Positions 8,846 to 11,920 are shown, counted from the first letter of the stretch. The stretch: 64,000 nucleotides of DNA from Alphaproteobacteria bacterium (GCA_900768465.1 CAAGCY010000013.1:187587-251586), one strand, 5' to 3'. Numbers and translations are program-made. The notes: generated by a model from the letters alone, not told the origin.

Positions 8846-11800
8846 ATGACAATATTCAGCAAATCAAGCGACCAGCGCGGCGCGTTAATGGTGGAAGCCA
8901 TTGCGCTGTTGGGATTGATGACGATGATTTCGCCGATGATTGTGCGTCAAACGGCGGAACGCACGACGGAAATGGAGGATGTTGCCGTCGCGGGACAGAT
9001 GAAAACAATCAAGGATTCGTTGGAAAACTATATTCGGTCGGACTATACGAATCTGATTCCCAATCCTCCCCAGCAGGCGGAGTTTCAAAAAAATATCGAA
9101 GCTTCCAAGCTTGCGCCGTTTTTGCCCGCTTCGTACATAGATTCGGGGGCGATTCGCGGCAACAAGCTGGCGGAAGGCTTTGACGTCGGCGTTCGCGGAT
9201 TCTGCACCGAAAAACAAAATAAAAGCACGGGCAAGATCGAGGACTGCACTTTGGGCGCGTCGTGCGAATGTACGCGCTATAAAATCGTGGGTATGATTGT
9301 CAGCAAAAGCGATACGGAAATTCCCGACAAACGGGCGGCGCGCGTGGCGTCCATGCTGGGGGCCGACGGCGGCTATATGCGTACCAAAGAGGTCGTCGAC
9401 GCCATTTCCACAACACCGGAAGGCGCGGCGGGGGCGATGAAAAAAGTGCTGGGCGCGCAAGGCATGTGGGAAGTCGACGATATCGATAAATACGTAACGG
9501 GTACGGATGCGACCAAAGGCGGGCGCATTGCCATGTCGACGGTGTTTTCGTCGGGGTTGTCGGCGGATTACCTGTACCGCAAGCACGTTAACGGCATTCC
9601 CGACGCGAATTCGATGTTTACGGATTTGGATATGGGCGGCAACGGCGCGTGTACGGATACGTCGGGCGACGGCAAGTGCAACCGTATCAACAACGCGGGC
9701 GGCATGGAAGTTGTCGGCGGACGGTTGATTGTGCGCGAAAAGAACGGTGCTTCCGGCGAAGATCAGGCTGACGGCACGGGCGATGCACTGGCGCGTATCG
9801 CGTTGGGTGTCAATACGGCTTCGATGCAGGTAAAACAAGGCGTGGCGATTTCCGCGGGGACGGCTCCCGCCGCCGTTCCGGGGGACGGCAGTATCGTCCT
9901 GTCGGGATCGAACAACATCACCGCGGATGCGGCGGGTGATTTTTCGGCACAGGGCAACACCGTTGAAATGCAGACCCGCGACGGCAATCTGCGTTTTGCG
10001 GCGGGCGACGGATCAATCGCGATGGAAGCGTACGATGCCGCATCGGGCGCGACCGATCCGACATCGCAAATCGCCATGAATTCGGCACAGGCGGATATCA
10101 AGGCGCCCACCGTTACGGCAACGGCGACGGGCGGCGATCTGGAGCTGAAGTCCGATACGAACGACGTTGTCGTTTCCGCGGCGAATCTGCTGAATATGAG
10201 CGGGGCGGACGTTGAGCTCGCGGCATCCAACGAATTGACCGTTCATTCCGATCAAAATATAACCGTCGAAGCCGAACAAGCGATGACGTTGGCTACGGGA
10301 AGCGGAGATTTGCTGATAAATTCGGGCAATAATCTCAACCTCAGCGCGACAAATTTTGCGCAGGTGGATGCGCGTTTGATTACATTGAATGCGGGACCGG
10401 CACAGCTGACGATGGGCAGCATGATAGCTGCTAGTGGTTCTTCTGATGGCAGGGGGGATGCTACCTCCGGTTCGCCGAGTATCCGTCCGAATTCCCTTTC
10501 CAAAATCGTCGGCGGGCTGACGGTGGATTCGGCAAACGATAGGGCGCTGACCATCAGCGATGCCGGCAAAGCCACCGTGATTTTGCAAAAACAAGGGCTG
10601 ACGATTCACGCGTCGACGGATAAAGCGGCGGGAATGATTCAGGGAAATACTTTCGGTAAAAACGACATCACGATTGCGGCGACAGCCGACCGCGGCGGCG
10701 TTATTGCTTTGGGCAGCAACGAATATGAACATTCCATTGAATTGGTCGGCAAAACGGGTACGGTGCATGCGGGTGTGTTTGAACCGAAAAATATTGCGAA
10801 TGCGTCGGGAACTTTATTTAAGCCCGTTCGCAACACGCTGAATGCGACTTTTGACGCGACAGGCAAGTACACAGGGGGAAATCCTGCTGATGCCGATACC
10901 GATACATTCGGTACGATTGTGACCGATGCGACGGGGAGTAAAACATATAATGTTCACGGCGGTGATACGAGCATGAACAAATTCCGCGTCAATCCCGCGT
11001 TTACGTCCGTGATGAACGACATCAAAATCACGTCGCGCGGCGGTGCGCGCCTTAGCGAAGCGTTGCCGAACTATATTCTGAAAGGCATTTACGACCTGAA
11101 CAACACGTATGCCAGAGGACCGTGGCCCTGTTCAAGCTCTTGCGGCGGCGATGCTTCCGGCAGCTCGGCGTGCTGTACGTACAAGCTGCCCAAAAAATCG
11201 GACGAAGGCTTCGATTTTATGTTGTCGAGCAATATTCCTACGGCAGGAGGGAATGTTTCCGATGGAACAGACAATTACACCGTTAATTTGTACAGCGAGA
11301 ACTATGTTGAATGCGGGACGACGGGTACCGGTGCGTCTGCGACCTATAACGCATGTTTGGCGCATCCGTTCCTTGGGGTTGTTCCCGCCCCCGGACGGCA
11401 GGTTTCGGTTGGCAGCGAAACCATGGGCGGTATGGACGAAGGCGTTTGCCCCGACGGCTATGTTGCGGCGATGACCATTACGCCCTATCAATTCGAAGTC
11501 GGCAAAGTCAACTACGTCAAAACGTTCCAGCCCGCGCAATCGGCGGATACGTTGGAATACATTGCGTATATGCAATGGGGTTGGAACCATCCGCGCAAAG
11601 GCGGTATTTTCCAGCCCGCGACGGCGGTCGGTATCGCAACAGAGGACGTGACTGACGGCGGCGTGTTAAAAGGTTGGAAAGTTGCCATGGGAACCATCGG
11701 CTACGGTTTCCCCGAACCCGGTGTAAACGAACAAGATAATAGTGTAGAAGCCAACACCGCGCACTGGATCTGGAACTATGGCGGAAACGTTGTGGTGGAT

Positions 11801-11920
11801 TCGATGAAAGCGTATGCGCAGACGTACTGCTATTTCAACCCGTCGCGTTTCACCATGCCGAACATGCGGGTTGTCGGAACGGGTGATGATAGAGTTGTTA
11901 CGTCAATGGACGATATCTAA
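8846..11920 (+). CDS. giant (1024-aa) prepilin-like protein: a putative minor-pilin/tip adhesin with a beta-helix-like repeat region
   Basis: The N-terminus MTIFSKSSDQRG|ALMVEAIALLGLMTMISPMIV has a class-III (prepilin) signal: a short basic leader ending in Gly, Glu at +5, then a hydrophobic helix. There is a Cys-containing head segment. It is followed by ~400 aa of Thr/Ala/Gly/Asn-rich short repeats (e.g. ADVELAASNELTVHSDQNITVEAEQAMTLATGSGDLLINSGNNLNLSATNFAQVDARLITLNAGPAQLTM) typical of a parallel beta-helix. The C-terminal domain is Cys- and aromatic-rich. It has a strong RBS and its own upstream promoter-like region. Confidence 0.55.
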   Translation: MTIFSKSSDQRGALMVEAIALLGLMTMISPMIVRQTAERTTEMEDVAVAGQMKTIKDSLENYIRSDYTNLIPNPPQQAEFQKNIEASKLAPFLPASYIDSGAIRGNKLAEGFDVGVRGFCTEKQNKSTGKIEDCTLGASCECTRYKIVGMIVSKSDTEIPDKRAARVASMLGADGGYMRTKEVVDAISTTPEGAAGAMKKVLGAQGMWEVDDIDKYVTGTDATKGGRIAMSTVFSSGLSADYLYRKHVNGIPDANSMFTDLDMGGNGACTDTSGDGKCNRINNAGGMEVVGGRLIVREKNGASGEDQADGTGDALARIALGVNTASMQVKQGVAISAGTAPAAVPGDGSIVLSGSNNITADAAGDFSAQGNTVEMQTRDGNLRFAAGDGSIAMEAYDAASGATDPTSQIAMNSAQADIKAPTVTATATGGDLELKSDTNDVVVSAANLLNMSGADVELAASNELTVHSDQNITVEAEQAMTLATGSGDLLINSGNNLNLSATNFAQVDARLITLNAGPAQLTMGSMIAASGSSDGRGDATSGSPSIRPNSLSKIVGGLTVDSANDRALTISDAGKATVILQKQGLTIHASTDKAAGMIQGNTFGKNDITIAATADRGGVIALGSNEYEHSIELVGKTGTVHAGVFEPKNIANASGTLFKPVRNTLNATFDATGKYTGGNPADADTDTFGTIVTDATGSKTYNVHGGDTSMNKFRVNPAFTSVMNDIKITSRGGARLSEALPNYILKGIYDLNNTYARGPWPCSSSCGGDASGSSACCTYKLPKKSDEGFDFMLSSNIPTAGGNVSDGTDNYTVNLYSENYVECGTTGTGASATYNACLAHPFLGVVPAPGRQVSVGSETMGGMDEGVCPDGYVAAMTITPYQFEVGKVNYVKTFQPAQSADTLEYIAYMQWGWNHPRKGGIFQPATAVGIATEDVTDGGVLKGWKVAMGTIGYGFPEPGVNEQDNSVEANTAHWIWNYGGNVVVDSMKAYAQTYCYFNPSRFTMPNMRVVGTGDDRVVTSMDDI

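Follow-up and report, generated by a model that had tools for sequence, protein, structure and literature searches.

A giant PilV-like prepilin with a long hypervariable stalk beside a type IVb pilus cluster of an Alphaproteobacteria bacterium

Results

A giant gene at the end of a type IVb pilus cluster

In this study, we have explored a stretch of 64,000 nucleotides from an Alphaproteobacteria bacterium (GCA_900768465.1, CAAGCY010000013.1:187587-251586; "the window" below means this whole stretch) and in particular a gene that encodes a protein of 1024 amino acids (hereafter the giant protein) and that follows a cluster of type IVb pilus genes (Table 1). The order of the genes, TcpQ-PilN-PilO-PilP-PilQ-PilR-giant gene, mirrors that of IncI2 plasmids, which is VirB10-VirB11-coupling protein-PilN-PilO-PilP-PilQ-PilR-PilS-PilT-PilU-PilV-shufflon/Rci. 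An earlier description of the locus, made by a model without database searches (the sequence-only reading), had proposed at this place a prepilin-type protein with a large non-pilin body, possibly a tip adhesin. The open reading frame (ORF) is present as described, and the proposal proved reasonable. Its statement that the body is about four times the size of PilV or CofB was too high, the giant protein having about 2.4 times the length of IncI2 PilV (428 amino acids).

Table 1. Features of the giant gene, the type IVb cluster and associated pilin-like genes (window coordinates; a bar in a sequence marks the predicted cleavage site).
Feature	Coordinates	Strand	Basis or remarks
Giant PilV-like prepilin gene, 1024 amino acids	8846..11920 (including stop codon)	+	ORF list and translation
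Leader peptide, residues 1-12 = MTIFSKSSDQRG; predicted prepilin-peptidase site Gly12|Ala13	8846..8881	+	
Pilin module, residues 13-325: hydrophobic alpha1 with Glu17, globular PilV-type domain	8882..9820	+	
Hypervariable Ala/Gly/Thr/Ser/Asn/Asp-rich beta-repeat stalk, residues 326-700 (~370 amino acids)	9821..10945	+	
Near-invariant "neck", residues ~701-760 (FRVNPAFTSVMNDIKITSRGGARLSEALPNYILKGIY...GPWPC)	10946..11125	+	
C-terminal beta-sandwich head (predicted), residues 761-1024	11126..11917	+	
PilL/TcpQ-like lipoprotein gene	264..959	+	Pfam TcpQ E 1.3e-15; called gene in L017
PilN-family type IVb secretin	949..2559	+	NCBIfam TIGR02520 E 8.8e-80; Pfam Secretin
PilO, type IVb pilin accessory protein	2576..3964	+	Pfam PAP_PilO E 1.8e-24
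PilP-like, long Pro/Ala-rich and coiled-coil region	3948..5372	+	Weak C-terminal NCBIfam pilP_fam E 0.0026; cluster position
PilQ-type assembly ATPase, GspE family	5432..7102	+	Pfam T2SSE E 9.8e-65
PilR platform protein, GspF family	7119..8207	+	Pfam T2SSF E 3.1e-22; 1107 homologues
Repeat-rich non-coding spacer, pilR to giant gene	8208..8845	.	638 bp; no credible ORF
Partner gene, 290 amino acids	11933..12805	+	Leaderless hydrophobic N-terminus MFFWVVLASLMG..., amphipathic helix, four conserved Cys
Small pilin-like paralogue, 145 amino acids, MTERG|TLMFQVLAVLAIM...	35642..36079	-	Gln at +5 (G|TLMFQ); ORF and motif

A conserved prepilin signal

The giant gene starts with ATG, with GGAGG placed 8 nt upstream, and the N-terminus of its product is MTIFSKSSDQRG|ALMVEAIALLGLMTMISPMIVR. 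The leader is short and charged and ends in Gly at -1, as in class III signals, while Glu17 stands at +5 in A-L-M-V-E17 and is followed by the hydrophobic AIALLGLMTMISPMIV, as in the alpha1N of pilins. In an alignment of 53 homologues (37-94% identity), R11, G12, A13, L14, M15, E17 and most helix residues are invariant. A distant subfamily keeps the same pattern (...QKG|SMMVEALAMLGLI..., G|SMMVE). The sequence-only reading had claimed a class III signal, to be given up if the G-x4-E pattern were not conserved; no such loss was seen in the 53 homologues, and the motif stands. An ordinary Sec signal was considered and rejected, since Glu lies within the hydrophobic core with no AxA site beyond it, and since the invariant motif matches the PilV cleavage site in the alignment. 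Furthermore, a strict class III scan ("G, four residues, E, uncharged hydrophobic run") gave the giant ORF as its sole match in the 64-kb window. By its sequence, the giant protein is thus a type IV prepilin-like protein with a conserved, presumably cleaved, prepilin signal.

The pilin module is related to PilV

Residues 1-330 alone scored 28.0 bits (E 2e-6) with Pfam Shufflon_N (PF04917, the constant region of PilV), for which the cut-off is 27.5, and 13 of the 16 homologous N-domains matched as well, with a best E of 4.5e-12. Using hhalign, the N-domain profile was aligned with IncI2 PilV over 203 columns (96.7% probability, E 4.6e-10). This alignment superposes DKG|VSLLE on QRG|ALMVE, bringing the cleavage Gly and Glu+5 of IncI2 PilV into register, and also pairs ASMIEGLGGY with ASMLGADGGY and LYRYSITNRPDLNRMHTAIDM with LYRKHVNGIPDANSMFTDLDM. 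When the N-domain was compared by tblastn with 72,556 plasmids, 739 records matched; among the matches listed, pilV lay under the match in 15 of 15. In the AlphaFold model, a helix at residues 10-65 (a 55-residue alpha1) is followed by a beta-sheet with strands at 111-125, 140-154, 175-178 and 228-235, and the predicted local distance difference test score (pLDDT) is 70-85 for residues 40-235. Two pairs of cysteines, Cys120/142 and Cys269/278, are conserved in the module. Since Shufflon_N, hhalign and tblastn agree, the relationship to PilV goes beyond what a hydrophobic helix alone would give, and homology to the PilV constant region is indicated for residues ~1-300. PilV itself is the adhesin found at the tip of type IVb thin pili of the IncI/R64 type.

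Stalk, neck and head

Together, the conservation profile and the secondary-structure predictions give a three-domain plan of N-domain, beta-rich stalk and beta-sandwich head. Column identity is 0.4-0.8 in the pilin module (1-325), 0.18-0.38 in the stalk (326-700), up to 0.92 in the neck (701-760) and mixed in the head (761-1024). On either side of the stalk, the columns have an identity of 0.5-0.9. The stalk is 306-438 amino acids long in homologues. As the sequence-only reading had noted, the middle region is rich in Thr, Ala, Gly, Asn and Asp: residues 331-700 contain A15 G11 T11 S9 D8 N7 %, and no Cys. Part of the stalk can be written as octads (DVELAASN ELTVHSDQ NITVEAEQ ... NLNLSATN), and residues 430-530 have a period of 8.0 with a power of 2.4, the 95% level of shuffled controls being 1.43. 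In homologue stalks the top period was 8.0-8.5 in 5 of 9, each under the 95% null level. AlphaFold predicts short beta-strands in the stalk with a pLDDT of 55-65.

The only family similarities of the stalk were to multi-chain beta-helices. Sarcoglycan_1 matched the giant protein with E 5.7e-5 (23.0 bits, below the cut-off of 32.5) and DUF2345, a family of VgrG, with E 0.008 (16.5 bits, below the cut-off of 30.7); DUF2345 also appeared in 4 of 9 divergent homologues scanned (E 1.4e-6, 1.5e-6, 8e-6 and 2e-4), the best of them, at 28.6 bits, again being sub-threshold. In sarcoglycans, a three-chain beta-helix stands above three membrane helices and carries Cys-containing heads (PMC13294987), and DUF2345 is part of the extension at the C-terminus of VgrG, a trimeric spike (PMC9860674). 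No single-chain beta-helix family or enzyme was matched by the giant protein in Pfam or NCBIfam, and no effector or enzyme domain was found in it. With Foldseek, neither the AlphaFold model of the whole protein (pLDDT 57.8) nor the C-domain model had a significant match in the PDB; the archaellins, VgrG, phage spikes and sarcoglycan, listed at E > 0.04 only, were disregarded as evidence. PDB sequence searches with the full protein and with the N- and C-domain profiles gave no usable match, and tblastn of the stalk against plasmids gave no match. As matches were obtained only to multi-chain families and none to single-chain ones, we favour a homotrimeric, intertwined three-chain beta-helix as the predicted structure of the stalk.

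The most conserved block of the giant protein is the neck, with an identity of 0.92 over residues 726-750, and it is retained in the distant subfamily. Its motif is FRV(N/D)PAFxSVMNDIKxTSRGGARLSEALPNYILKGIY, and the segment SVMNDIKITSRGGARLSEALPNYILKGIY (residues 717-750, window 10994-11095) is the best conserved of the superfamily and matches no known motif. AlphaFold gives this segment a pLDDT of ~30-40 in both models. Candidate roles are a trimer neck, a partner-binding site or a processing site. Outside the family, the neck motif has a single match, the 483-amino-acid WP_137406556.1 of Vibrio chagasii plasmid p1 (33% over 120 amino acids, pairwise E 7e-8). This match is an independent link between the C-terminal module and the tip pilins of thin pili associated with conjugation.

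In the head, Cys762/777/868/995 are conserved and the loops are variable. The conserved Cys pairs of the giant protein would fit an extracytoplasmic location. The sequence-only reading had called the last ~250 residues rich in Cys, Tyr and Trp; this is right for Tyr and Trp, of which the C-terminal quarter holds 15 of 30 and 5 of 7, and wrong for Cys, with only 6 (2.4%) there and 6 in the N-domain as well. The best structural matches of the C-domain were CofB/TcpB and H-type lectins, in a Foldseek comparison with the PDB that was not significant.

A large family that varies in stalk and head

A word-indexed search found 179 homologues of the giant protein, and an exhaustive search with a hidden Markov model at least 659 clusters at 50% identity, 256 of them with E < 1e-30. 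Every named member of the family is annotated as "hypothetical protein". They come from metagenome-assembled genomes of uncultured Alphaproteobacteria or Rhodospirillaceae of the human gut, the rumen and horse faeces. A 71%-identical giant pilin together with its partner (L001, CAVCSV010000033.1) is filed under a Limosilactobacillus gorillae bin, and is almost certainly on a mis-binned alphaproteobacterial contig. Three members (P0143-P0145) reach 2,111-2,171 amino acids and are the largest pilin-like proteins among the sequences compared; they have the same pilin module, neck and head, with a middle part of ~1,500 amino acids that is not obviously repetitive.

Strains of this species hardly differ in the pilin module: among 40 alleles of at least 90% identity, 0.6% of its residues are non-majority. 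Variation among the same 40 alleles is concentrated in mosaic blocks at residues 481-576 (up to 25%), 769-832 and 930-1024. The pattern fits what would be expected of a buried, assembly-constrained base and of exposed loops under selection by a ligand or by immunity, and the strain-variable loops would mark the likely binding surface. No shufflon was detected at the locus: the region 8800-14800 has no repeated inverted (sfx-type) sites and no Rci-type recombinase, and there is no integrase among the neighbours. A shufflon or other inversion system was rejected on these grounds, and allelic variation would functionally replace the shufflon of PilV. An RGD sequence at residues 533-535 (window 10442-10450) lies within the most strain-variable segment, and other alleles have AGD, QGS or SGD in its place; we considered it as an integrin motif and rejected it as probably fortuitous, given its position and its replacement in many strains.

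The cluster, its surroundings and loci in other genomes

As judged from its genes, the cluster is an R64/IncI-type type IVb machine beside a type IV secretion system (T4SS). In contigs of the same species, the region upstream holds a 724-amino-acid gene (its end lies in the window at 1-130) and divergent genes for TrbC/VirB2 and VirB4 (E 1.4e-107), with more T4SS-sized genes. The divergent T4SS adjoins the type IVb cluster in several species (L028-L030). In contigs L021, L022 and L023 (1-9867), it is this conserved gene upstream of the TcpQ-like gene, the one of 724 amino acids in the species of the window, that encodes a Pro/Ala/Lys-rich membrane protein of 590-813 amino acids without known domain, and the divergent T4SS genes comprise TrbC/VirB2, a 96-amino-acid gene, VirB4 and four or five others without family matches.

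As the sequence-only reading had stated, the giant gene stands beside GspE/GspF-like genes, PilQ and PilR adjoining it in this species. The spacer between pilR and the giant gene holds direct repeats (a 54-nt repeat twice, a 51-nt repeat twice and a 21-nt repeat four times) containing GTCATTGCGAG, and its length varies among strains (649 bp in L023, 670 bp in L021, 853 bp in L022). It occupies the position where IncI plasmids carry pilS-pilT-pilU, and may mark a rearrangement junction. The arrangement of the giant gene and pilR is stable across many strains of this species. In related species the T4SS-TcpQ-PilN-O-P-Q-R block is kept, with a PilR identity of 66-86%. The most distant one examined (L029, PilR 66% identical) has four genes of the PilS/bundlin family (G|RSMVE...) after pilR, at 11125-13909; in L028 and L030, which are closer, pilR is the last gene of the block, and no PilS-type gene is found there.

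A partner gene directly follows the giant gene here, in L019 and L026, and in 14 of 15 other-genome loci; in L024, of the distant subfamily, it lies upstream of the giant gene. Its product measures 220-290 amino acids across loci and starts with M-F-F-W-V-V-L-A-S-L-M-G, without leader and without Glu. No match was found in Pfam or the PDB. Whether the partner is a pilin-domain paralogue of the giant N-domain was examined and rejected (hhalign 0.6%; Pfam Tt1218-like E 0.2); it is probably a further component of the tip complex or of assembly. Twenty-four kilobases from the giant gene, a small pilin-like gene, whose N-terminus can also be given as MTERG|TLMFQVLAVLAIMAM..., has a start codon that overlaps the murJ stop by 4 nt. 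The word-indexed search found 7 homologues of it, and in tblastn it is 36% identical (E 7e-16) to a small pilin of L009, where the order is murJ, small pilin, giant gene, partner. Only in L009 does the small pilin adjoin the giant gene. It may be another component of the tip complex or of assembly. The description of the giant protein as the only pilin-like protein of the cluster is thus correct for the pil cluster itself and overlooks the partner, with its leaderless pilin-like N-terminus, and the small pilin. In L019, a block of iPGM-M23-S41-deacetylase-NUDIX genes (3767-9841) lies directly upstream of the giant gene; in the window the same block is found at 29482-35550 (-), 18 kb from the giant gene and on the other strand.

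Discussion

Based on our results, we consider it fairly probable that the giant protein, a member of the PilV family built on the plan of CofB/TcpB, serves as a minor (tip) pilin in a type IVb pilus of the R64/IncI type. In the mechanism that we infer, a prepilin peptidase encoded elsewhere would cut after Gly12, and alpha1 with its Glu+5 would dock the giant protein in the PilQ/PilR/PilN machine, where it would start a filament as its first subunit or subunits. Three copies would associate as in CofB/TcpB, and their repeats of ~370 amino acids would co-fold as a long stalk, a three-chain beta-helix, with the neck after it. This stalk would present distally a disulfide-bonded, lectin-like beta-sandwich head, and the strain-variable head and exposed stalk loops would bind a surface structure of the target cell. 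Because VirB4/TrbC T4SS genes are conserved nearby, the target would most likely be another bacterium, contacted in T4SS-dependent transfer as by IncI PilV (PMC9045228); a host mucosal ligand would be the alternative. We put forward only tentatively, and think rather doubtful, the more specific proposal that the stalk is a sarcoglycan/VgrG-like three-chain shaft of tens of nanometres with a lectin-like head, possibly extruded as the whole fibre by an R64-type machine minus its major pilin, for target recognition by a chromosomal T4SS of Alphaproteobacteria that are abundant in the gut and uncultured.

The closest known relative is PilV of IncI1/IncI2 plasmids (R64, TP114), which is the variable, target-binding end of the pilus (PMC9045228), a role that the giant protein would share. 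The homology covers the N-terminal ~200-300 amino acids, including the cleavage Gly and Glu+5, with the shared motifs ASM-GxxGGY and LYR...P..N.M.T.(L/I)DM, and pilV has the same place after pilN-O-P-Q-R, adjoining a T4SS. Importantly, there are also clear differences. The giant protein has 1024 amino acids instead of 428, its C-terminal two thirds have no similarity to PilV, and it shows allelic mosaic variation and has no shufflon, sfx-type repeats or Rci. Unlike pilV, its gene is chromosomal, among housekeeping genes, with no adjacent pilS, pilT or pilU. CofB of enterotoxigenic Escherichia coli (CFA/III) and TcpB of Vibrio cholerae (toxin-coregulated pilus), minor pilins whose trimer forms the initiating complex at the tip, follow the same plan of a type IVb pilin domain, a beta-repeat domain and a C-terminal beta-sandwich; CofB has a pilin domain and two beta domains and forms a homotrimer in which domain 3 is an H-type lectin (PMC6048534). 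Compared with these, the giant protein has no detectable sequence similarity, a PilV-family pilin domain, twice the size, a stalk of ~370 amino acids instead of a short beta-repeat domain, and an extra invariant neck. No secreted partner of the CofJ/TcpF type was recognised, and the adjacent 290-amino-acid protein is unrelated in sequence.

Modular pilins are established and widespread, and type IVb tip pilins that are trimeric and have three domains have been described (PMC8179133, PMC6048534); the giant protein is therefore not a new kind of system. Modular type IV pilins such as PilB and PilC of Streptococcus sanguinis likewise consist of a pilin module with a grafted functional module for display on a filament. 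In the giant protein, by comparison, the grafted modules match no database domain and the base is of type IVb/PilV type and not type IVa-like; it exceeds the most extreme modular pilin of the survey (860 amino acids), with relatives of ~2,100. The needle of T4 gp5 and of type VI secretion system VgrG (DUF2345), and the beta/gamma/delta-sarcoglycan tower, share with the stalk the sub-threshold matches and, in part, the 8-residue strand period. The layout of sarcoglycans, in which an N-terminal membrane helix leads to a three-chain beta-helix and then to a head with Cys (PMC13294987), would be shared as well. Unlike VgrG/gp5, the giant protein has no gp27/gp5 OB (oligonucleotide/oligosaccharide-binding) or PAAR-binding parts. 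The resemblance to three-chain beta-helices is probably an analogy of fold rather than common descent. The V. chagasii protein WP_137406556.1 shares DI(K/R)LTSRGG..LS...PNY..KG and a C-terminal ...YCFY, and its gene follows those of a secretin, an ATPase, a GspF-like and a 195-amino-acid protein in a type IVb cluster beside DotA/TraY, in the position of PilV. It differs in its length of 483 amino acids, a short Asn/Thr/Leu-rich repeat region, the lack of Glu+5 (G|FFFQL) and its gammaproteobacterial plasmid; it is annotated as hypothetical. What is new in the family is that a stalk of great length and hypervariable sequence connects a PilV-type base to a head of the CofB/TcpB type; further new features are the invariant neck, the nearly constant leaderless partner, the absence of a shufflon and the separation from the machinery in most species.

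If this reading is true, it extends the idea of the modular pilin to proteins of 1,000 to ~2,100 residues and links the PilV adhesins of conjugative thin pili with the trimeric colonisation pilins CofB/TcpB, which have been treated separately before. It would also offer a candidate device by which uncultured Alphaproteobacteria of the human gut and rumen recognise partner or host cells, tied to a chromosomal T4SS and type IVb locus. Two questions follow, namely whether a machine without adjacent major pilin and prepilin peptidase can display such a subunit, and whether a three-chain beta-helix can assemble on a pilin base.

Several of our observations weigh against the tip-pilin reading. A Pfam scan of 49 ORFs of the window gave no PilS/bundlin, no PilT and no A24 peptidase (PilU), and tblastn with PilS, PilT and PilU of IncI2 and with proteins of L016 and L029 found none in the window; that neither a major pilin to be capped nor a cutting enzyme turned up is the main weakness. 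In all 15 loci from other genomes, and in L019 and L026, the giant gene lies among housekeeping genes with no pil gene within 10 kb, so that the idea that homologues always sit next to GspE/GspF-like genes, which the sequence-only reading had suggested checking, fails. From the murJ-small pilin order of L009 and the block order of L019, the adjacency of the giant gene to pilR looks like a secondary rearrangement. The Shufflon_N score exceeds its cut-off by 0.5 bit only. All beta-helix profile matches are below the Pfam cut-offs and could reflect composition, and the periodicity over the whole of residues 330-700 is below the shuffled null (1.07 vs 1.45); the regular hydrophobic periodicity that had been described for residues 330-720 thus stands for residues 430-530, with their period of 8.0, and not for the full region.

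Other explanations can be proposed for the same data. The giant protein could be part of a pilin-anchored fibre without a conventional pilus, a short stem of giant protein, small Gln+5 pilin and partner pushing a trimeric adhesin of ~1000 amino acids through the secretin in the manner of the pseudopilus of type II secretion systems. The lack of a PilS-type gene after pilR in this species, L028 and L030, where a more distant relative keeps four, would agree with this, and here the giant gene occupies the very place of PilS; the pairing of giant and partner genes and the order in L009 suggest a self-contained set. We nevertheless judge this unlikely: only 64 kb of the genome were seen and PilS may be encoded at another site, just as the giant gene is in other species, Glu+5 is the subunit-docking residue of polymerising pilins, and PilV, CofB and TcpB all cap long filaments (PMC6048534, PMC9045228). 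The body could also be a monomeric, single-chain right-handed parallel beta-helix carried on the pilin, the adhesin or enzyme fold that the sequence-only reading had in mind. The composition and the strand-rich prediction of residues 330-700 suit such a fold, and a period of 8 residues could equally give a 24-residue, three-faced turn. Single-chain solenoids are usually well predicted by AlphaFold, whereas the stalk model has no confident solenoid (pLDDT 55-65); no Pfam family of this fold and no enzyme was matched, sequence similarities were to multi-chain beta-helices only, and the solved structures of type IVb minor pilins show trimers (PMC6048534). On this evidence the claim does not hold up well, and we regard a single-chain fold as decidedly unlikely.

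The tip-pilin reading, for its part, takes the neighbouring machine to be the one that the giant protein serves, and it could be argued that the adjacency is due to chance, the pilin belonging to a different type IV filament machine elsewhere and having been placed beside pilR by a rearrangement in this species only. This would account for the gene pair lying away from pil genes in the 15 other-genome loci and in L019 and L026, for the giant gene of L019 following the iPGM-NUDIX block that is 18 kb off on the other strand in the window, and for a junction made of a repeat-rich spacer of variable length. It is made very unlikely by the N-domain, which is specifically PilV-like and so of the minor pilin class of exactly such a machine, by the conservation of the TcpQ-PilN...PilR cluster in related species, by the absence of other type IV filament machinery from every locus examined, and by the stability of the arrangement across many strains. 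A pilus-presented weapon for contact-dependent killing, with a VgrG-like beta-helix as membrane-piercing spike or with a toxin head, seems to us highly improbable. The recurrent sub-threshold similarity to DUF2345 (VgrG), the phage and pyocin spikes that Foldseek listed, without significance, for the full-length model, and the HNH-like toxin-type genes and SUKH immunity-like gene nearby speak for it, and the tips of Tad pilus used in killing offer a precedent (PMC12075869). All spike matches were non-significant, though, no part of the protein gave a toxin, PAAR or enzyme domain, the head resembles adhesin/lectin folds rather than spikes, and the HNH-like genes are not next to the giant gene in other species.

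Other genes in the window

Rfam and tRNA scans of the window gave nothing. Downstream of the gene pair, the window holds chromosomal housekeeping genes, for example those for a pheA-type prephenate dehydratase, TerC, QueA, AnmK, TsaD, MurJ, GlnD and MutS. Three tandem paralogues of 186, 186 and 221 amino acids lie at 12875-14677 (-), with a fourth copy of 194 amino acids at 18193-18777 (+). All four have the C-terminal motif GWN(V/T)HHK.P..GGG.N.F.N, and the fourth gives a weak Pfam HNH match. A SUKH/SMI1-type immunity-like gene follows the fourth copy at 18849-19295 (+), and in sequence the HNH-like and SUKH genes look like a small toxin/immunity family.

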